From: Eubacteriales bacterium
GTDB taxonomy: Bacteria > Bacillota > Clostridia > Oscillospirales > CAG-382
DNA length: 64,000 nucleotides
Direction of reading: 5' to 3'
NCBI GenBank assembly: GCA_045637685.1
Contig: JAZTZW010000018.1
Coordinates: 52,004-116,003 of the forward strand
Shown: positions 5,787 to 14,644 of the stretch, one piece after another
Layout of the letters: each line of letters begins with the position of its first letter
Numbering within the stretch: position 1 is the stretch's first letter
Program-made: the position numbers and the translations under genes
The notes under the pieces: model-generated
Seen by the model: the letters and a program-made list of their open reading frames with translations, nothing else
Databases searched by the model: none
Told to the model about the DNA's origin: nothing

Positions 5787-6839
5787 ATGAACAAATTAAT
5801 GAAAAAGGGCGTTTTGCTTTACACGAGCTACCGCGGATACAGCGGCGGCAAATATTACGTACCGACCGATAGTGAGCTTAAAGCCCTGCTTGAGGTTACC
5901 GACGAGATACTGCTTATACCTATCGCGACCTTTAACCGTTATATCGACAGAAACGGGAATGAAACAGAGGTTATTACGCGCGAAATAATCGACGGAATGA
6001 CCCCCGATATGGTGGGCGACCCCAGCCGTTTGGAAACGATTAAAAAGGAATATCACGCAACAGCGGACAAGATTCTTGCGGGCAATTACCATATTAAGGA
6101 TTACGTTGCCGATGCAATTTCTTATGCCGAGCGTCTTGTTGCGATAAATCCCGACGTGAAGCTTTGGTTTTCGGTGCCTCATTCGGAATGCTGGCACGCG
6201 CTTACCCACCTTTTCTCCGAGCCGTGGGCGGATACGGTTGACCTTATAAAGAATTCTCTGCGCGCAGATATTTGGGATAACAACGTTCAAGGTATTTATT
6301 TCGCAGGCGAGGATATCGTTACCGCAGGCTACACGAGATTTGATAACGACAAGCCCGAAGAGGATTTTAACAATCCTATTGTTAAGGCGATGCGTGTTGT
6401 TTCCGAGCGCGTTCGCTCGTTCGGCAAGAATTTTCTTTGGATTCCCTATTACCACGAAGCGGCTTCGAGCTCGAAAAACCTTGGTCACGTTGTGAATCTT
6501 ACGAATATTTTCGATACCGCTATCATTCAGCCGTCGTTCTTCTTCAACCCCGCGCGCGTTGATGAAATAAGAATTGTGAGCGATTGCGTTCGCAAGCAGG
6601 CGGTTGTGGATATAAACGGAAATATTATCGGCGGTAAGAAGGTATCAAACACCGAAATCGGCTTTGAAATGGAAATTGACGAGCAGTTTTACGACAGAGA
6701 GGGCTACCCCGAACGCTATTACGCTTACGAAAAGGGCTTCGGCGAATTCGTAGGTGTTCGCCCGACCGCTTATTACGCAGGCGCGCCCGAAACGTTGATA
6801 AAAACCCTGCCGATTATTGATAAATTTTATAAAAAATGA
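5787..6839 (+). CDS. hypothetical protein (350 aa), possibly a TIM-barrel glycosidase-like DUF
   Basis: Long ORF with an SD (AAAGGGAAAAG) upstream. No catalytic motif recognised. Divergent from the rml operon. Confidence 0.65.
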   Translation: MNKLMKKGVLLYTSYRGYSGGKYYVPTDSELKALLEVTDEILLIPIATFNRYIDRNGNETEVITREIIDGMTPDMVGDPSRLETIKKEYHATADKILAGNYHIKDYVADAISYAERLVAINPDVKLWFSVPHSECWHALTHLFSEPWADTVDLIKNSLRADIWDNNVQGIYFAGEDIVTAGYTRFDNDKPEEDFNNPIVKAMRVVSERVRSFGKNFLWIPYYHEAASSSKNLGHVVNLTNIFDTAIIQPSFFFNPARVDEIRIVSDCVRKQAVVDINGNIIGGKKVSNTEIGFEMEIDEQFYDREGYPERYYAYEKGFGEFVGVRPTAYYAGAPETLIKTLPIIDKFYKK

Positions 6840-8029
6840 GATTCCCCAAATTAAAAAACGCACTCTTGTGCAGGATAATGGTGTACGTCACCATTATTAT
6901 TGTGCCGATAAGCGTTATAAGCTGGAGCATACTTTTAACCGACGGCCCGCCTGCGATTTTGAAGATTGCGGTATTTGTCGGTTGGGCGGTCGCTTTAATC
7001 GCGTATTTATCTAAAAACATTATGGTTTTGTTTTTCTTAGACGTAACGCTTGCGTCGCTTCGAGCGCACAGCCGTGTAAGAAAGCATTTCGATTATCCTA
7101 CAAAAAACGTCGGCGACGACGTTGCAAAGCGTATTGAAAAAAGGCTTTGCCTTTGGGGCAGTAAGTGCGAGCCGCGAAACCGCGAGCCGATACCGAGACT
7201 TATTAAATACAGCGCACGGATATCGTGGACGATATACAACAGCGGGGTAAACAAGTTTATTTTAATCTACCGCGCCGAAACGCTCGACAAGCCGCTTTAT
7301 GACAGCATATTCCAATCGGCGAAAACTAATACCGAAAAATACATCGGCACGAAAAAGCGCATTATTACCGACAAACACCAAAAGAAAGCGCCGCTTTCGG
7401 TCGCCTGTGTTCCCGTAATTATCGCCAATAGGGTCGAGGAAGCGTTTTCGCAAAAGCTTTTCGATACCGTTTGTAAGGGTAACGGCAACGATAACAAGGC
7501 GTTTTTGCCCTGCGTTATCGATGTCGAAAGAGGTATTTGCGTTTTCAACAGCGAAAAGGAACCTTACTTTGGGTTTGGTTACAGCGCAAAAAGCCGAGCA
7601 TATAACCTTATAAAACGCTATGTTTTCGGTGGGAGACTGCCTTTTAAAAACAACGACGACAAGATAAAAATGCATTACGGCGACGATGGCTTTAGCGAAG
7701 AAACATCGCTTTGGGCGCTTTGGCGTTTTCTGAAGCTCGAAGCGCGCGATATAACGCGCAAGGAAAAGAAATCGGTAAAATCGCTAAAGGAAAACGATAT
7801 AAAATTCGAGGACGACACGGTTTATATCAAAATCGGCAAGCGCACCGCCGTTCTGCCGACGCTCGAGGAAAACGGCGTGCTTACTTTGCCTTATCCCGAA
7901 ATGTGGAGATATCCCACAGCACAGAAAATTGCAAAAACGACCCAAAAGGATATAGAGCGCAGGGTTAGCGATTTTATGACAAAAAAAGGATACAAAATAA
8001 AATTCGAGAAAACCGAGGAAGAACAATGA
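6836..8029 (+). CDS. hypothetical membrane protein (397 aa)
   Basis: The ATG overlaps the upstream stop (ATGA). Three N-terminal hydrophobic segments are followed by a ~300-aa basic soluble region. Confidence 0.65.
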   Translation: MRFPKLKNALLCRIMVYVTIIIVPISVISWSILLTDGPPAILKIAVFVGWAVALIAYLSKNIMVLFFLDVTLASLRAHSRVRKHFDYPTKNVGDDVAKRIEKRLCLWGSKCEPRNREPIPRLIKYSARISWTIYNSGVNKFILIYRAETLDKPLYDSIFQSAKTNTEKYIGTKKRIITDKHQKKAPLSVACVPVIIANRVEEAFSQKLFDTVCKGNGNDNKAFLPCVIDVERGICVFNSEKEPYFGFGYSAKSRAYNLIKRYVFGGRLPFKNNDDKIKMHYGDDGFSEETSLWALWRFLKLEARDITRKEKKSVKSLKENDIKFEDDTVYIKIGKRTAVLPTLEENGVLTLPYPEMWRYPTAQKIAKTTQKDIERRVSDFMTKKGYKIKFEKTEEEQ

Positions 8030-9041: not shown

Positions 9042-10883
9042 TTAAATTCCGAAAATTCTTTTTCCGATAAGCATACCGAGCGTTATTTCGGCAACCGTCC
9101 AGCCGGTTTCGATACAGCAGGGACCCCAGCCGACGTCGTGCGGGATTCCGAAATATTCAAGCCGATTCAGGTCGATACCTCTGCACCAGCCGCCGTTGGT
9201 TTCTGCGCTTTCGGTTATAAGCTGTGTTTTTATAAAAAATTCGCAAATTTCGCGCCAAGCTTGATAAAAACAGCCGTCGTTCGTTATTAAAAACGCAACA
9301 GCAAAGCCGAGCGGGAGCCAATTTACCGAATATAGCAAATCCGCCACGGGGTCGCCGTTTTTCGCAAGGAGCGAGCATTCGCCGCCTTCGTTGTTAAAGC
9401 AGACCGCCTTGTAGCCGCTGTCCCATTCGGCATAACCGCCCGATTCGTGGCGGTGCTTTTGCAAATCGCGAAAAACGCGATAAAGCATTTCCTTGTGGTT
9501 TTCGGCACGCGTAACGCCGTAAAGCAAGGCGAGAGGGAGAATAAGTCTGCAAAGCTCGCTTGTTTCGCTGTGCTCGCGCACGGTTTCGGGGTATAGCGAC
9601 ATAAGCGTTTCGATACCGCGAACACCAACCGCTTTAAATTCCTCGTTGCCGCTTATAAGATAACCCAAAAGCAAAGCCGCGCTGTAATATGCGTTATAGT
9701 GCGCGCTTGCATAGCCCTGCTCCGCCTGCTTTAATTCAAAAACAGATTTGTTTTCACGCAGGAATTCAAGAATATCGGTGCGCATCGGGCGCAAGCCGTC
9801 CTTCGGGGTTGTTTTGCAAAGAAAATCAAGCGCGTTCAGCGCGTTTTGCTTGTATTTATCGGTCATATCGAAATACGAAGCCAACAAGGTCGGCATTATT
9901 GCGCGGGCAACGTCGTCCTGATAGCAAACGCCCCACGCCTCCTCCGACCAGCGCACCATATTTTCGAACTCGCCGCTGTGAACGGTTAAAGGTCCGTAGC
10001 AAAGCGAGAACATATTATCCGCGATGCTTCGAAGCTTTTCGTTTTGCGAAAACATAAACGCGCCCGCCGCCTCGCCCGTGCAATCGGTGCGCACAACGTT
10101 CGCGCCGATGCGTCTTCCGTCGGGGTGGATATTGTGGCTGAATCCTTCGCGTATGCCGTATTTTCCGTCGGGTGAAACGAGCTGTTTTTCCAAAAACGCA
10201 AGCGAGCGTTCGATACAGCCTGTTAGCTCGTCTTCGAAGCTTTTTTTAAGCACGCGCTTTACCGAAAGAGCGTTTTTGCTTGGTATTTCGGGTGCTTTTA
10301 GTCCCAAAAACCTAAAAATATACGCCGTAAGTGCATCAAACCGCGCCTTCGGTGCAAACGCGCCGTTTATATAATCGCAGAAACGGAATGCACATTGAAG
10401 AATATTCGAATATTTAAAAAGCGCGGGGGAATCGGTTTGTGCGACCGATTCGAGCCTATCGTGCGCGGGTGTGTATTTTTGCAAATAAAGCAGTATTTCG
10501 GTTTCGGGCATAAGAAAATGCGGGCGGATATACAAATTGTAATGCGGGTCCAAAAGCTCGTTTTGCTTAATATCTTCGCATATATCGCGCGCGGCGGCGA
10601 GCCTGTGGCAGGTAAGCCGTTCGGGCTGTGCCGAATAAATACAGCGAAACGATGCGACGTATTCCAAAAATATCGGCTTACCGCTTTCGGCAAAATGCTC
10701 GAGCCTTTCGCGCAGGTAGGGCGAAAGCATAATCGGCGCATCCTCCGTGCCGCCCAAAACTGCGACGGCGGAATAAACATTAAGCTCTGTTACTTCCTCG
10801 GGCGGAAGAATATCGCAATTTCCAAGCTTTTTGAAAAGCGAGGAAAGATTGCTGTTTTTTCGTGTTATTACAAGTGTTTTCAT
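9042..10883 (-). CDS. hypothetical two-domain protein (613 aa), C-terminal part possibly (alpha/alpha)-toroid glycosidase-like
   Basis: Long ORF translationally coupled (ATGA) to the upstream serine hydrolase. Helix-repeat-like C-terminal half rich in W/Y/G. No signature recognised. Confidence 0.7.
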   Translation of the reverse strand: MKTLVITRKNSNLSSLFKKLGNCDILPPEEVTELNVYSAVAVLGGTEDAPIMLSPYLRERLEHFAESGKPIFLEYVASFRCIYSAQPERLTCHRLAAARDICEDIKQNELLDPHYNLYIRPHFLMPETEILLYLQKYTPAHDRLESVAQTDSPALFKYSNILQCAFRFCDYINGAFAPKARFDALTAYIFRFLGLKAPEIPSKNALSVKRVLKKSFEDELTGCIERSLAFLEKQLVSPDGKYGIREGFSHNIHPDGRRIGANVVRTDCTGEAAGAFMFSQNEKLRSIADNMFSLCYGPLTVHSGEFENMVRWSEEAWGVCYQDDVARAIMPTLLASYFDMTDKYKQNALNALDFLCKTTPKDGLRPMRTDILEFLRENKSVFELKQAEQGYASAHYNAYYSAALLLGYLISGNEEFKAVGVRGIETLMSLYPETVREHSETSELCRLILPLALLYGVTRAENHKEMLYRVFRDLQKHRHESGGYAEWDSGYKAVCFNNEGGECSLLAKNGDPVADLLYSVNWLPLGFAVAFLITNDGCFYQAWREICEFFIKTQLITESAETNGGWCRGIDLNRLEYFGIPHDVGWGPCCIETGWTVAEITLGMLIGKRIFGI

Positions 10884-11788
10884 TTTTCTATCGTATGCTT
10901 TATAAGGATTTCGGAGAATTTCGCAACGTCGTTTTGCTCACAGCATTGTACCGCAAGCACAGCGTTTTCTTCGGGCAGAACTATCGAATACTGACCGTAA
11001 GCGCCGTCGGCACGGAACGAATTTTCGCGCTGGCCCACAAGCCAGAATTGGTAACCGTAGCCGCTGTGCCAAGGCGATTCGTGGCCGGTGTCTATCTGCT
11101 TGCTTCCCGCCTCGCTTACCCATTTTTCGGAAACAACACGCTTGCCGTTATAAACACCCTTGTTAAGGTAAAGCACGCCGAGCTTCATCATTTCGGTTAT
11201 GTCCAAATAAAGTCCGCTACCGCCGAATGCCGTGCCGTCGGGGTCGGTTTCCCAAGCGGGGAAGCCCATATCGAGCGGTGTGAAAATTTTGTCACAGCAA
11301 TATTTCAAAAGCGGCATTTTGCACGCCCTTTGCACCATACAGCCTGCCAAATGCGTGTCGCCGTTCGAATAAACGAACTTTTCGCCCGATTCGTATTTAA
11401 GCTCCTTCGAAAGCATATAGCCGATATAATCGGGGTAGCCTTCCAGCTTTCTGCGGTTGGCACTCATTAAAAACGCGCCGCCGAAGCCCGAGCTCATTGT
11501 TAAAAAATGGCGAAGCGTTATGCTTTTCACACGCTCGTCGGTAATAACCGAGGAATATTCGGGAAAAAGCTCGGAAACGGTGGTGTCGAGAGTAAGCAAG
11601 CCTTCGTCTATTGCAATACCCGCGGCGGTGGAAATAAAGCTTTTCGTGTGCGAATAAATAAGTCTCGGTCCTGCGGGGACAAAGCGGTGAACAAGCTTTA
11701 ATTCGCCGTCCTGCCAGAGCGCAACCGATTCTACGCCCGTGTTTTCGCGCTTTAATGCTTCGATGTAGTTGTTAACTCTGTTAAGCAT
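10880..11788 (-). CDS. beta-lactamase-related serine hydrolase (class C/esterase family)
   Basis: SxxK motif (YSHTKSF) near the N-terminus and a YSN-type motif (FVYSNGDTH). Start moved to the ATG at 11788, which has GGAG 9 nt upstream; the longer ORF to 11893 lacks an SD. Confidence 0.8.
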   Translation of the reverse strand: MLNRVNNYIEALKRENTGVESVALWQDGELKLVHRFVPAGPRLIYSHTKSFISTAAGIAIDEGLLTLDTTVSELFPEYSSVITDERVKSITLRHFLTMSSGFGGAFLMSANRRKLEGYPDYIGYMLSKELKYESGEKFVYSNGDTHLAGCMVQRACKMPLLKYCCDKIFTPLDMGFPAWETDPDGTAFGGSGLYLDITEMMKLGVLYLNKGVYNGKRVVSEKWVSEAGSKQIDTGHESPWHSGYGYQFWLVGQRENSFRADGAYGQYSIVLPEENAVLAVQCCEQNDVAKFSEILIKHTIEK

Positions 11789-11925
11789 AGTTTTACTCCA
11801 AATCAATCGATGTTTTTGCCAAGCGAGGGGAGCTGAAATTCTGTTATCCTGCATTTGATTATAACTGCGAAAGCTACGTTTGTCAACATTCAACCCATAG
11901 TTGAAATATGTCGTTTGCGAGGTTA

Positions 11926-11954
11926 TTGAAAAAGCGAAAATAAAATGTTATACT
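11926..11954 (+). promoter_or_regulatory. extended -10 sigma-70-type promoter of the HTH-TPR regulator
   Basis: TTGAAA-17nt-TATACT with TGn immediately upstream of the -10. Confidence 0.5.
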
Positions 11955-11994
11955 TGCACTATTATGAAAAACTATGAATATTTCGGGGTATAAA

Positions 11995-12816
11995 ATGAAC
12001 ATCGGTAACAAAATAAAGGAATTAAGAAAACAGCGCGGTATAACGCAGGAACAGCTTGCAACAAGCATCGGCATATCATTTCAGGCGGTGAGCAAGTGGG
12101 AAAATAACATCGCCCTGCCCGATATAACGCTTGCGCCGATGCTGGCAAGCTATTTCGGTGTTACGATGGACGAGCTTTTCGATTTTAATTTGCAGGAAAT
12201 CGAAGCAGAGGTAGAGCAAATTGCCGACGAGGCTTATAAATACCGCACGGGCGACCCTGAACGCAGCCGTAGTATTTTGGAAGAGGGCTTGCGCAAATAC
12301 CCCGAAAACGATATCCTTTTAAACAATCTGCTTTACGTTATCGATTATTCGAACAATCCCGATACCGCCATAGCGATTGCGAGCAAGCTTATCGAAAAGG
12401 CGACCGACCACGGCATTAAATACGACGCGTTGCGCTTTATGGCTTATGCTTATAAGGTAAAGGGCGACCTTCAAAGCGCGAAAATGGCGATAGAGCAGAT
12501 ACCCGAAATGTATTTTACCCGCCTTACCGAAACCGCCTATGTTTTAACCGGCGAGGAAAAGCAAGAAGCGGCGGAAAAGCAAAAATGGGTGTCGTTCGAA
12601 AACCTTATACAAATGATGTGGCACCTTGCCGAATGCTTCGAGGAAAAGAAAGATTATAAAAACGCCGTCGCAGAAACCGAAAAAGCACTTGCGCTTATAG
12701 CCATTGTGGGCGATTCCACGACCGATGCCAACTATTTTTACGAAAACTACGTAACCTTTTTCGAAAGTCAGATAGCAAGAATGACAGAGCTTTGCGCGGG
12801 AAGCACAACCCCTTGA
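11995..12816 (+). CDS. XRE-family HTH transcriptional regulator with C-terminal TPR domain
   Basis: N-terminal HTH_3 (IKELRKQRGITQEQLATSIGISFQAVSKWENN) followed by ~200 aa of TPR-like helical repeats. An alternative ATG lies at 11974. Confidence 0.85.
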   Translation: MNIGNKIKELRKQRGITQEQLATSIGISFQAVSKWENNIALPDITLAPMLASYFGVTMDELFDFNLQEIEAEVEQIADEAYKYRTGDPERSRSILEEGLRKYPENDILLNNLLYVIDYSNNPDTAIAIASKLIEKATDHGIKYDALRFMAYAYKVKGDLQSAKMAIEQIPEMYFTRLTETAYVLTGEEKQEAAEKQKWVSFENLIQMMWHLAECFEEKKDYKNAVAETEKALALIAIVGDSTTDANYFYENYVTFFESQIARMTELCAGSTTP

Positions 12817-12879
12817 CGGAAGCAAGAATATAATATATAATGTTACCGAAATAATAAATTGTTTGTTATGAGGTAGTAA

Positions 12880-13440
12880 ATGGCTAATTACATAAGCGAC
12901 AGCACGAAGATCGACCCGAACGACAAAAAGAAAAAGCAGATAACACCCGAAAAAATATACGATGCAATTTCAAATTCGAACAAGGGCGGCCTTTGGGGCG
13001 GTATAATTTTGTCGTTCGTAATTTTGATTATGATGCTTATATTTGTGCTTGTGGTCAATATCAGCGGTATGGAGCAAAAATGGGCAACGCTTGTAAATAT
13101 GTTGCTGTTAAGCGTTCCGCTTGCGATGGTTATGATTTTCCTTTATTTGTATTACCGCGACACGAAAATGCTCGCGGAGGGCGGTTATAAAATAATTACG
13201 GATACTGCAGAACGCGTCGTTACCGACGACAGATACGTACGCTACGGAAGACATTCGTACATGGAGCACGCGATGTATCTTTACAATTGCGGCAGAGTTG
13301 TAATCTCGCTTCAGGAAACCTACACAAACAGCGAAGGCGATACATTTTACGTCGTAGTATCCAAAAAGCGCCCGCGAACTGCCTTGTTTGCATATAATTC
13401 GAAATATTACGAATTGGTCGATTTAAAGGTCGAGCAGTAA
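12880..13440 (+). CDS. hypothetical membrane protein, paralog 1 (186 aa)
   Basis: SD GAGGTAG upstream. Basic N-terminus, two hydrophobic helices, ~95-aa C-terminal domain. Alignable along its length with 13453-13986. Confidence 0.7.
   Translation: MANYISDSTKIDPNDKKKKQITPEKIYDAISNSNKGGLWGGIILSFVILIMMLIFVLVVNISGMEQKWATLVNMLLLSVPLAMVMIFLYLYYRDTKMLAEGGYKIITDTAERVVTDDRYVRYGRHSYMEHAMYLYNCGRVVISLQETYTNSEGDTFYVVVSKKRPRTALFAYNSKYYELVDLKVEQ
13393..13424 (+). repeat. 32-nt stretch identical to 13939-13970 (3' ends of the two paralogs)
   Basis: tataattcgaaatattacgaattggtcgattt is present in both genes. Confidence 0.9.
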
Positions 13441-13452
13441 AGAGGGGCAAAA

Positions 13453-13986
13453 ATGGGAAATTACAAAAGCAACAGCACAAAAAGCGACTATTCCGACGGC
13501 AAAAGAAAAATAACGCCGAAAATGATATATGATCATTTCGAAAAGCCGGCAAAGCAATCGGTCTGGGCGTGCCCTTTAATGAGCGTTTTATTTACAATTT
13601 TGGCGTTAATTATAGATGAAACGGTATTAAGCGTGGTGCTTTATTTCTTTGCCGTTCTTTTTCTTGTGATGGGCTGTTTAAATTACTTTAGTGTAATGAA
13701 AATGCTGAAAAACGGCGAATTGATGATTATTACCGATAAGGTCGAACGGGTCGCTCCCGAAGAAAAAATGAAGGTAAGACTGCACGGAAATTATGCATCG
13801 GTCAACGTGCAGCATGCAATTTATCTCGAAAAGTGTGGAAGAGTGCTCGTTACTTACGGAGAAACCAATACGAACAGCGTGGGCGATATATTCTTTGTTG
13901 TGGTAACAAAAACACACCCCACGACCCCCTTGCTTACGTATAATTCGAAATATTACGAATTGGTCGATTTGAACACCGAGCAATAA
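13453..13986 (+). CDS. hypothetical membrane protein, paralog 2 (177 aa)
   Basis: Same architecture as 12880-13440. Shares the N-terminal pattern M-x-NY-x-S-x-STK-x-D and the C-terminal YNSKYYELVDL. Confidence 0.7.
   Translation: MGNYKSNSTKSDYSDGKRKITPKMIYDHFEKPAKQSVWACPLMSVLFTILALIIDETVLSVVLYFFAVLFLVMGCLNYFSVMKMLKNGELMIITDKVERVAPEEKMKVRLHGNYASVNVQHAIYLEKCGRVLVTYGETNTNSVGDIFFVVVTKTHPTTPLLTYNSKYYELVDLNTEQ
13939..13970 (+). repeat. 32-nt stretch identical to 13393-13424
   Basis: Second copy of tataattcgaaatattacgaattggtcgattt. Confidence 0.9.
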
Positions 13987-13990
13987 ATAA

Positions 13991-14016
13991 AAAACGGTTG
14001 CAACGCAACCGTTTTC
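13991..14016. terminator. bidirectional terminator hairpin
   Basis: aaaacggttg-caacg-caaccgtttt between convergent genes. Confidence 0.6.
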
Positions 14017-14017
14017 T

Positions 14018-14644
14018 TTATTCCTTTATAACCTTAACAAGCAGTAATTTGCCTTCTTTTACGCTTATTTCGGCGGTTTTGCCCTTTATTACCTCGTTGC
14101 TTATGCCGTATTGGTATTCGGGTGAAATTTCGGCGTTTTCAAGCGGGAATTTTGCGTTTTTCACGGTTATTCCCTTTGCCGTACCGTCGATGGCAAGGAG
14201 CGAAAAATAGGGGTAGCTGTCATCGACAAGCGCTGTTTTATTTGAAATTATTTCAAGCTCGGAATAATCGTCGATAATGCTCGCGCTTTTGCCTAAAGCG
14301 TGCAAATATAAAAGCGCCGAAATATTTCCGAGGCTGTGGTCGAAGCGTTTACCGAGCGCGCCGATAAGCAAAAAATCGTCAAACCCGCGCCGTATTGCCT
14401 CTTTTATTGCGAAAAAGGTATCGGTATCGTCCTTTTCGCGGGGGAGCACTATCGTTTCTGCTTCGCTGTTCGGGTTTTTATAGGAATCGAAATCGCCGAC
14501 AATAAGGCTTGGGGTAACACCCAAACCGTCTAAATGCTTAAGCCCCGAATCGCAGAAAATATAAAAGTCTTGTTTACTAAGACGCTTGTTTATAAAGCCG
14601 TAATCGGCTATCGGCGCACCGCCGACGATAACGCATTTTTTCAT
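14018..14644 (-). CDS. thiN: thiamine pyrophosphokinase
   Basis: 208 aa with the typical TPK N-terminus (VIVGGAP...) and the GDFDS motif. Confidence 0.8.
   Translation of the reverse strand: MKKCVIVGGAPIADYGFINKRLSKQDFYIFCDSGLKHLDGLGVTPSLIVGDFDSYKNPNSEAETIVLPREKDDTDTFFAIKEAIRRGFDDFLLIGALGKRFDHSLGNISALLYLHALGKSASIIDDYSELEIISNKTALVDDSYPYFSLLAIDGTAKGITVKNAKFPLENAEISPEYQYGISNEVIKGKTAEISVKEGKLLLVKVIKE

Follow-up and report, generated by a model that had tools for sequence, protein, structure and literature searches.

The locus described here, part of a 64-kb window (the whole stretch of DNA that was analysed), appears to consist of two transcription units lying side by side by descent and not to form a signalling module, a reading that we favour with moderate confidence. 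The same confidence covers the assignment of the first unit: judged from its structural model, the regulator would be an orphan among the XRE-TPR transcription factors of PlcR/Rgg-like shape (RRNPP fold). The second unit holds two tandem paralogous genes for small membrane proteins. The operator, the promoters and the membrane topology given here are predicted. The features are the following.

11858-11886, minus strand: divergent promoter-like site, TTGACA-17-TATAAT, 12 of 12 matches, in front of a beta-lactamase-family gene and a 613-aa gene
11889-11905, strandless: 17-bp palindrome TTCAACCCATAGTTGAA (TTCAAC-N5-GTTGAA), candidate operator of the regulator, from its conservation
11926-11954, plus strand: promoter-like site in front of the regulator gene, TTGAAA-17-TATACT, the -10 being extended by TG
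11995-12816, plus strand: regulator, 273 aa, XRE-type HTH and TPR-like region with a PlcR/Rgg-like fold, from domain, alignment and fold searches
12813-12841, plus strand: promoter-like site of the membrane array, TTGACG-17-TATAAT, 11 of 12 matches, directly upstream of paralog A
12880-13440, plus strand: paralog A, 186 aa, predicted cytoplasmic N-tail, TM hairpin and cytoplasmic beta domain
13393-13424, plus strand: 32-nt stretch in paralog A encoding YNSKYYELVD, putative recipient of a conversion tract, identical to 13939-13970
13453-13986, plus strand: paralog B, 177 aa, with the architecture of paralog A
13939-13970, plus strand: 32-nt stretch in paralog B, found unchanged in the B copies of four genomes, likely donor of the tract
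13991-14015, both strands: two-strand intrinsic terminator, common to the convergent thiamine pyrophosphokinase gene

A probable orphan regulator with no peptide gene beside it

The open reading frame of the regulator covers 11974-12816, and alignment with 23 homologues places the start at MNIGNK (11995), which yields 273 aa. An HTH_3 domain (PF01381, residues 7-61, E 2.7e-17) assigns the protein to the XRE (Cro/C1-type) HTH group. The repeat region is faint at the sequence level: TPR_14 scores 23.7 bits against a cutoff of 23.5 bits, the remaining TPR models stay under their cutoffs, and the regulator profile matches consensus TPR proteins weakly. In the structural model, five HTH helices and about ten repeat helices give a PlcR-like count. 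Foldseek searches of the PDB return PlcR (E 8.8e-6 and 7.4e-5) and Rgg2 (3.7e-4) as best matches and then ComR, PrgX and NrpR, with every alignment running the full length; TM-scores against RRNPP members stay at a low 0.22-0.45, and generic TPR proteins are behind by a factor of only about 100. PlcR of the Bacillus cereus group and Rgg, ComR and PrgX share with the regulator the N-terminal XRE-type HTH, some five TPR-like helix pairs and a length of about 270-300 aa. The suggestion that the domain plan is RRNPP-like therefore holds at the level of the fold.

Purifying selection on the regulator is strong (dN/dS 0.06-0.09), and within the locus it is the most conserved gene and paralog A the least. 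Its family is abundant and highly conserved, with 1980 matches in a word-seeded search, and one relative at 71% identity appears in 603 indexed blocks of the contig collection. Phage and plasmid collections hold HTH-level or partial matches only.

Does such a fold make a quorum-sensing receptor? The RRNPP signature that we used comprises five criteria (PMC10075063). With 273 aa the regulator lies within the receptor range of about 250-500 aa; for peptide-binding TPRs there are the borderline TPR_14 score and the best fold matches, to PlcR and Rgg2, at low TM-scores. The locus lacks the other three features: a small propeptide, secretion of that peptide and a peptide gene next to the receptor gene. 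No propeptide gene (10-100 aa) lies beside the regulator, either here or in about 66 homologous loci, and the conservation of small ORFs around it stops at near-identical sister loci. Conserved ORFs of 8-76 codons carrying an RBS-like motif, looked for up to about 450-700 nt away from the regulator, were absent both from 15 orthologous loci and from the full set of about 66 that contains them. A 30-aa ORF at 11901-11993 was rejected as a peptide gene: it overlaps the regulator promoter, needs a start site further upstream and is not conserved. For secretion through Sec or PptAB there is no candidate; the neighbouring paralogs have two TM helices with both ends predicted to be cytoplasmic, which counts against a secreted pheromone precursor. 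The direct neighbours of the regulator are a divergent serine-hydrolase gene and the 186-aa membrane protein.

Sequence models point the same way. Searches of Pfam and NCBIfam at E up to 1 for PlcR, Rgg, PrgX, NprR, Rap and AimR models gave HTH and generic TPR matches only, the TPR domain matching no RRNPP-specific model, and in sequence and profile searches of the PDB the regulator matched PlcR and ComR over the HTH only (E 0.01-0.08). The original prediction had seen no adjacent propeptide ORF, which is borne out at this locus and across its homologues. Its proposal of a peptide-sensing quorum system is not sustained: in the missing propeptide gene and in the missing match to RRNPP-specific models, the regulator differs from PlcR, Rgg, ComR and PrgX.

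A candidate operator upstream of the regulator

The palindrome TTCAAC-N5-GTTGAA occurs once in the window. It is found at the same place 5' of the regulator gene in loci L001, L003-L006, L008, L009, L011-L013 and L015, as well as upstream of the regulator gene in L039, L040, L046, L049 and L076, and it is kept down to 71% regulator protein identity, irrespective of the downstream gene. The -35, TG and -10 elements of the regulator promoter are conserved across all orthologous upstream regions. This conserved position upstream of a promoter suggests autoregulation: the regulator, presumably as a dimer, would most likely bind the palindrome directly 5' of its own promoter. Since the palindrome also abuts the -35 of the divergent promoter, the regulator would control itself and possibly the divergent operon, whose genes are conserved throughout the syntenic clade and whose beta-lactamase-family member carries the serine-hydrolase domain PF00144 (E 7e-28). 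Such control would respond to a ligand in the TPR-like domain, the gene for that ligand not being next door.

A palindromic box upstream of the promoter is also a feature of PlcR, the PlcR box, to which the candidate here is comparable. Another counterpart is RstA of Clostridioides difficile, an accepted orphan RRNPP regulator that likewise combines HTH and TPR, comes from Clostridia, has no adjacent peptide ORF and controls its own gene through an inverted repeat in the promoter (PMC6414698). That repeat runs across the -10, as in a repressor, whereas the centre of the palindrome here falls about 64 nt before the inferred start of transcription.

Two probable transcription units and their loose linkage

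The membrane genes appear to have a promoter of their own, which is stronger than the promoter-like site of the regulator and was overlooked earlier. Its TTGAC-17-TATAAT core is conserved and moves with the first membrane gene, whether it is preceded by the stop codon of the regulator gene, by an AAA_18 gene's 3' end or by a terminator-like hairpin. That hairpin, followed by a T-run and recognized by eye, lies between the regulator and the membrane-gene promoter in L015. An Rfam scan of 11500-14300 produced a chance-level snoRNA match only. The paralogs would thus be transcribed from their own consensus promoter, ending at the terminator shared with the convergent gene. The proposed insulation of the trio is not sustained: its extended -10 promoter-like site and two-strand terminator are there, but given the paralogs' own conserved promoter and the terminator-like sequence of L015, it is not a single insulated unit.

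How far do the two units travel together? Regulator and membrane genes adjoin in a single clade of uncultured ruminant-gut Clostridia, in which the entire neighbourhood is syntenic. A membrane gene is present in 11 of the 12 genomes of this clade, with none in L029/L031, and copy number ranges from 0 to 4. Between regulator and membrane genes stand an AAA_18 gene in L011 and a nucleotidyltransferase plus an AAA_18 gene in L013. Beyond the clade, none of the 54 more distant metagenomic regulator loci holds a membrane-family gene, nor do the regulator loci L003-L006 or L032. In turn, membrane-family genes occur without this regulator in L002, L016-L022 and L033-L038, that is, in about eight other genomic contexts. 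The expectation that regulator and paralogs would be syntenic in other genomes therefore largely fails.

A tentative alternative, to which we give clearly less weight, is that the regulator senses a peptide that is either encoded elsewhere or too small or atypical for detection, and that it switches the downstream membrane array, together with the genes inserted there, on or off. Its fold is RRNPP-like, some RRNPP members have peptides that are unlinked or undiscovered (PMC6414698), and RRNPP regulators with a DNA-binding domain frequently control adjoining genes (PMC10075063). The adjacency within the clade also fits, and the gene that follows the regulator in L011 and L013 overlaps its stop codon, which suggests co-transcription of the islet. 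Against this, the only conserved palindrome has no copy at the membrane-gene promoter, which is near consensus and so looks constitutive; the hairpin of L015 parts the two units; regulator and palindrome persist in loci where membrane genes are absent; and the roughly 66 loci yielded no conserved micro-ORF.

Some observations count against plain neighbourhood by descent. The adjacency holds while the membrane protein falls to 38% identity, which could reflect function rather than inertia. In L036-L038 a distant array of the superfamily lies beside an XRE-type regulator of another architecture, and in L032 a homologue of the regulator is followed by a different two-TM protein, of the YcxB family.

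Membrane paralogs of an uncharacterised superfamily

The tandem paralogs, with their two TM helices and a C-terminal domain, were predicted correctly. They share 43% identity in protein and 58% in DNA. The AlphaFold2 model (pLDDT 78) shows long helices at residues 23-61 and 66-99 and then a beta-rich C-terminal domain at 103-179. Together with the positive-inside rule, it points to both ends being cytoplasmic, so that the paralogs would sit in the inner membrane as small proteins with the N-tail and the C-terminal beta domain on the cytoplasmic side. Both belong to one family by profile (E 7.9e-89 and 4.2e-66 for the 186-aa and 177-aa proteins), in which an N-terminal motif, M-[AG]-N-Y-x-S, and an acidic C-terminal tail, YYELxDxxxE, are strongly conserved. 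Word-seeded searches put the size of this family at 16-58 clusters and an exhaustive profile search at about 260 clusters at 50% identity.

That the family is an unknown one also stands: Pfam, NCBIfam, PHROGs and PADLOC gave none. Foldseek searches of the PDB and a viral library found nothing better than E 3e-3, and in the PDB nothing better than 0.1; the best matches are small beta-barrel DUFs, non-significant in the PDB. There is no PHROG match and no phage record with a homologue, nor do phage and plasmid collections contain one of the paralogs. A holin assignment (Phage_holin_3_6, PF07332) was rejected, as only 6 of 71 superfamily members match it, and weakly (best E 9e-6) over the TM hairpin.

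Small membrane proteins that join a TM hairpin to a cytoplasmic beta domain are known from YcxB (PF14317), bPH_2/YdbS-YdbT and short NfeD/YuaF. The paralogs are alike in their length of about 165-195 aa, two TM helices, a beta-rich soluble domain and an occasional tandem arrangement, but none of these families has a sequence match among the 71 superfamily members or a significant fold match in the PDB. Moreover, the PH-like fold has a C-terminal helix, which the paralog model lacks. Kinship with YcxB was considered and dropped: the two paralogs do not match it at E up to 1, nor do any of the 71 members, paralogs included, at E up to 0.01, and the YcxB protein of L032, the only one examined, matches the membrane-family profile weakly and over the TM region only.

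The membrane genes have a dN/dS of 0.22-0.36 versus 0.06-0.11 for the regulator and flanking genes; these values are raised yet below 1, and positive selection was discarded. Paralog A has diverged more than any other gene of the locus and is mosaic in its 5' third, with 69% nucleotide identity to L011 compared to at least 92% in the DNA around. Paralog B, with B-type orthologues in L011, L013 and L015, has a dS far under that of the flanking genes. As the high local divergence comes with high dS, it indicates allele replacement and not adaptive point substitution.

The two paralogs may thus represent the local remnant of a tandem array of 0 to 4 copies that evolves through duplication, loss, allele replacement and short gene conversion. 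The array would belong to a variable islet bounded by the regulator gene on one side and the thiamine pyrophosphokinase gene on the other; in relatives, a nucleotidyltransferase, an AAA_18 kinase-like or a TIR-domain gene is found there as well. Such behaviour would be typical of accessory, envelope-related or conflict-related genes more than of a dedicated signalling partner.

Could the paralogs instead confer immunity, as an orphan array from a polymorphic-toxin or bacteriocin system that has nothing to do with the regulator? We regard this as unlikely, even though tandem diverged small paralogs, copy-number variation and gene conversion would agree with it. Some of the other contexts are suggestive: the L002 homologue starts 5 nt downstream of an RHS/YD-repeat protein, the copies of L020-L022 cluster with membrane proteins and ABC-transporter ATPase/permease ORFs (by eye), and the array of L036-L038 is interspersed with a second small family, DUF3916. 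The L002 protein, the sole toxin candidate, is however a 601-aa lipoprotein with repeats to its last residue and no C-terminal toxin domain, and was rejected on that ground. A toxin gene is absent from the window locus and the syntenic loci, and neither PADLOC nor the Pfam immunity families gave a match.

Probable short gene conversion between tandem copies

The 32-nt identity near the 3' ends of the paralogs, reported before with its coding sense YNSKYYELVD, is exact and stops at both edges. An identical run of at least 32 nt arose in 0 of 20,000 codon-column shuffles, and where both paralogs encode the same residue, the codon agrees at 11 of 13 sites in the tail versus 29 of 58 elsewhere (p = 0.03). 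Compared with the 32-mer, the A copies in L013, L014 and L015 are 4-6 positions off (TAC AAC ACx), while those in this window and in L011 resemble B (TAT AAT TCG/TCA). The five terminal codons are exchanged between A and B copies across different genomes, and the A and C copies of L015 have 44 nt in common. Comparison of the copies thus best explains the identity as short, recurrent gene conversion among tandem genes; the tract seen here would have passed from B to A in the ancestor that this genome shares with L011.

The earlier note had left a choice between conversion and a constraint at the nucleotide level. Selection on the sequence itself, as an RNA or DNA element, strikes us as improbable. 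In its favour, the core AAATATTACGAATTGGTCGATTT hardly varies among the A, B and C copies of five genomes, even at synonymous sites, and the 32-mer holds a 6-bp inverted repeat, AATTCG...CGAATT, as read from the sequence. This repeat is missing in the A copies of L013, L014 and L015, and Rfam offers no match. Conversion predicts the mosaic that is observed, with YNS/YNT and tail codons swapped between copies across genomes, and other pairs of copies share identical runs of 35-44 nt.

An improbable alternative: paralogs as partners of the regulator

TPR domains commonly bind short terminal peptides, and one might imagine that the cytoplasmic domain, C-terminal tail or N-terminus of the paralogs docks in the TPR groove, or that a processed fragment serves as ligand. 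An RRNPP-fold regulator would then take a membrane-anchored terminus or beta domain in place of a secreted peptide; such binding would keep the transcription factor at the membrane or let it go, and the diversification of the tandem paralogs would adjust this control. Although the predicted cytoplasmic termini share the compartment of the regulator, both terminal motifs are strongly conserved and the adjacency is maintained within the clade, we judge this very improbable: the regulator family is far bigger (1980 matches versus 16-58, or about 260, membrane clusters), the regulator lacks a membrane-family neighbour at 54 + 3 other contexts and in one clade member, membrane-family genes do without it in their other contexts, and the L027 copy adjoins the regulator even though its N-terminal motif is missing.

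Implications

Two units that are probably neighbours by descent convey a chiefly negative lesson: an HTH-TPR regulator beside an odd gene pair does not equal a quorum-sensing module, and calling one needs a peptide as well as synteny beyond close relatives. The locus is probably mostly ordinary, and nothing about the membrane superfamily points to a new mechanism. The regulator joins the PlcR/Rgg-shaped regulators of gut Clostridia as one more orphan, and its clear candidate operator makes its regulon searchable. The membrane proteins, for their part, define an uncharacterised superfamily of about 260 clusters with the dynamics of an array, which may merit a DUF entry.

Gene organization of the locus

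Three open reading frames, all in the same orientation, occupy positions 11974-13986 of the window and are accompanied by the following features:

9042-10883, reverse strand: 613-aa protein without a Pfam match, paired with a PF00144 serine-hydrolase gene, both divergent from the regulator
11886-11858, reverse strand: divergent promoter-like site with a perfect consensus, its -35 abutted by a palindrome
11889-11905: 17-bp palindrome TTCAAC-N5-GTTGAA, 21 nt 5' of the regulator's -35
11926-11954, forward strand: promoter-like site of the regulator with a TG-extended -10 (promoter scan)
11995-12816, forward strand: regulator, open from 11974, with the start placed at MNIGNK by alignment with 23 homologues
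12813-12841, forward strand: near-consensus promoter-like site TTGACG-17-TATAAT, immediately 5' of paralog A
12880-13440, forward strand: membrane paralog A, 186 aa
13453-13986, forward strand: membrane paralog B, 177 aa
13991-14015, both strands: hairpin scoring as a terminator (terminator scan)

The aligned start agrees with the 273 residues originally predicted for the regulator, and the extended -10 promoter and bidirectional terminator described at the two ends are both present. The view of the trio as a single insulated unit is not supported, as it overlooked the second promoter-like site ahead of paralog A.

A PlcR-like regulator

The regulator combines an XRE-type HTH (PF01381, E = 2.7e-17) with weak TPR matches, TPR_14 scoring 23.7 bits against a cutoff of 23.5 bits. 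Pfam and NCBIfam scans up to E = 1 returned HTH and generic TPR signals and none of the models specific to RRNPP peptide receptors, and sequence and profile searches of the PDB reached PlcR and ComR through the HTH only. An AlphaFold2 model (24 sequences, pLDDT 78) contains the five HTH helices and about ten more. When it was compared with the PDB by Foldseek, PlcR ranked first (E = 8.8e-6 and 7.4e-5), followed by Rgg2 (3.7e-4), while ComR, PrgX and NrpR fell within the top 22, mixed among generic TPR proteins that enter from about 2e-3. PlcR, Rgg2, ComR, PrgX and NrpR all align over their full length. The comparison confirms the proposed RRNPP-like architecture at the level of the predicted fold, but leaves family membership unproven because TM-scores are low (0.22-0.45).

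The regulator belongs to a large and highly conserved family (1980 matches, with at least 68% identity for each of the best 120), and a 71%-identical relative is indexed in 603 blocks of a contig collection. The most invariant stretch of this family, AAEKQKW(V/I)SFEN followed by an invariant QMMW, spans residues 187-209 (about 12553-12621) and overlaps the lowest-confidence part of the model (residues 187-199, pLDDT below 50), which would be consistent with a segment that depends on a ligand or a partner.

Propeptide search and a candidate operator

To look for a propeptide gene, ORFs 8-76 codons long that carry an RBS-like motif and lie no more than about 450-700 nt from the regulator were collected and clustered, in 15 orthologous loci and subsequently in about 66 non-redundant loci including those 15. 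Neither set yielded a conserved ORF, in keeping with the prediction that none lies adjacent; sharing was limited to near-identical sister genomes, whose common ORFs overlap the regulator promoter itself. Set against the five-criterion signature of RRNPP systems (PMC10075063), the receptor has a matching length and borderline TPRs, and no small propeptide gene, secreted or neighbouring the receptor gene, was found.

The palindrome occurs once in the 64-kb window and recurs at the same position 5' of regulator homologues down to 71% identity, regardless of the downstream gene. We infer that it serves as the regulator's operator and that the regulator controls its own gene. For RstA, an orphan RRNPP regulator, control of this kind by way of an inverted repeat has been demonstrated experimentally (PMC6414698). 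As the palindrome also abuts the perfect-consensus promoter-like site of the 613-aa/serine-hydrolase pair, the regulator may in fact act on these two genes. The pair is conserved clade-wide, adjoining the regulator. A promoter-like element was seen in the compared locus L004 (about 5790-5880 and 6830-6920; also in the upstream region in L003), where an inverted repeat, ATCGGCAAAAA ... TTTTTGCCGAT, is followed by TTGATT-N17-TG-n-TATGCT or TATACT. It is placed both 5' of the regulator and 3' of it, ahead of a Fic gene.

Synteny and a variable islet

Across 12 distinct genomes of the syntenic clade, uncultured ruminant-gut Clostridia, the gene order runs 613-aa protein, serine hydrolase, regulator, variable islet, thiamine pyrophosphokinase, HD-domain protein. 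In 11 of them the regulator is followed by one or more membrane-family genes (none in L029/L031), with one copy in L001, L008 and L024-L027, two in the window, L011 and L007, three in L015 and four in L013. The islet, the gap between the regulator and thiamine pyrophosphokinase genes, also holds other genes:

L013, 6229-7481: NTP_transf_2 (nucleotidyltransferase) and AAA_18
L011, 7453-7992: AAA_18 alone
L008, 7683-9809: 708-aa TIR-domain protein with two TIR-like regions
L007, 7618-8728: duplicated kinase fragment and second membrane gene

In L011 and L013 the inserted gene overlaps the regulator stop codon. The predicted membrane-gene promoter is kept 5' of the first copy, be it after the regulator stop codon or after the end of AAA_18, and in L015 it is preceded by a hairpin that, judged by eye, resembles a terminator.

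Regulator homologues from outside the clade have TnpV, Fic or YcxB genes downstream of them, and no membrane-family gene lies within 3 kb of any of 54 full-length metagenomic homologues (28-71% identity). Conversely, membrane-family genes occur without this regulator in L002, L016-L022 and L033-L038, and two genomes carry a linked and an unlinked copy together. Regulator-membrane adjacency is therefore no better kept than the surrounding gene order, and synteny of the two in other genomes is limited to the clade where gene order is conserved in general. That the regulator still controls the membrane array as an adjacent target is the main alternative and a rather unlikely one.

Two further arrangements were observed. 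In L032 (4001-5759) the gene 440 nt downstream of a 69%-identical regulator homologue encodes a YcxB-family protein (PF14317) of 176 aa that shares the plan of two TM helices and a C-terminal domain, with no detectable sequence relationship to the paralog family. L036 (2238-6455; also L037 and L038) has a second tandem array of distant superfamily members (188/169, 176 and 164 aa). Among them lie a DUF3916 gene and a gene for a 169-aa TM protein, and a membrane regulator of 439 aa with XRE-HTH and RDD parts comes after the array.

An uncharacterised membrane family

The close membrane family is a small one, with 16 clusters found in 5.8 billion proteins; its members are annotated as hypothetical and come throughout from uncultured Clostridia/Eubacteriales genomes, mostly from ruminant guts. 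A profile search extends it to a superfamily that, at 50% identity, numbers about 260 clusters, almost all of them 160-200 aa long and matched over most of their length. In keeping with the C-terminal domain of unknown family described at first, the paralogs belong to no recognised family: Pfam gave nothing above noise for 71 sampled superfamily members, PHROG and PADLOC gave no match, and phage and plasmid records held no homologues.

In the paralog model (pLDDT 78), residues 23-61 and 66-99 form a TM helical hairpin, and the C-terminal domain is rich in beta structure and has a single short helix; Foldseek found no significant match to the model in the PDB or a viral library. The N-tail is lysine-rich and basic residues follow the second helix, which by the positive-inside rule implies that both termini are cytoplasmic. 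This predicted topology argues against the paralogs as a secreted precursor. It is very improbable that they are themselves the regulator's membrane-anchored ligands.

Conserved features of the close family are an M-[AG]-N-Y-x-S N-terminus, D108, R112, H130, C137-G138-R139 and the tail YNxKYYELxD. Since near-invariance across the superfamily is restricted to D108, D154 and Y177, the His and Cys are unlikely to be catalytic. All 17 close-family members of alignment A1, regulator-linked or not, have the N-terminal motif (12880-12900 and 13453-13473) unchanged, and it is missing from the L027 copy and the wider superfamily.

Probable gene conversion and allele replacement

Protein identity between paralogs A and B is 43% and DNA identity 58%, and the match first noted between 13393-13424 and 13939-13970 is exact over 32 nt, with no extension on either side. 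Identical runs of at least 32 nt arose in 0 of 20,000 codon-column shuffles. Four genomes have the exact 32-mer in their B copies. In L013, L014 and L015 the A copies read TAC AAC ACx (YNT) and differ from it at 4-6 positions; those of the window and L011 read TAT AAT TCG/TCA (YNS) and are B-like. Across genomes, A and B copies have exchanged their five final codons (LKVEQ or LNTEQ), and L015 contains identical runs of 44 nt (A/C) and 35 nt (B/C). All these patterns can be accounted for by recurrent gene conversion over short tracts, seeded where the encoded peptide motif is best conserved. Of the two causes first suggested conversion holds, on the mosaic YNS/YNT and swapped tail codons, and a functional element at the sequence level is unlikely and not needed.

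Across the same genomes the regulator is best conserved (77-98% identity) and paralog A least (38-82%), with flanking genes at 62-96%; dN/dS is 0.06-0.11 for regulator, hydrolase and kinase and 0.22-0.36 for the paralogs. Compared with L011, its closest relative, the window has a dS of 0.54 over the N-terminal and TM portion of A, 0.065 over the C-terminal domain of A, 0.047 over B and 0.17-0.27 over flanking genes, and nucleotide identity is 69% at 12970-13060 and at least 92% in the surrounding DNA. Against L015, dS is 0.15 in B and 0.72 in the adjacent regulator. These contrasts indicate allele replacement or internal recombination within the array, not steady divergence. The N-tail and TM hairpin of A (12970-13150) are 69-86% identical to L011 in nucleotides and 92-100% on either side, which looks like allele replacement by recombination and not point-mutation drift. 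Paralog B and its counterparts in L015 and L013 (8575-9108 in both) are far more alike between genomes than their neighbours, the kinase being just 66% identical in protein to that of L015; one explanation could be that lineages have recently exchanged the B allele.

Reading of the locus

Can the locus be understood as the peptide-sensing module first proposed? This is unsupported, because no peptide gene was found, synteny is bound to the clade, the paralogs have a predicted promoter of their own and their predicted topology is unsuited to secretion. We consider it fairly probable, with some reserve, that an orphan, autoregulated PlcR-like regulator here stands next to an array of uncharacterised membrane proteins that is transcribed independently and turns over fast.
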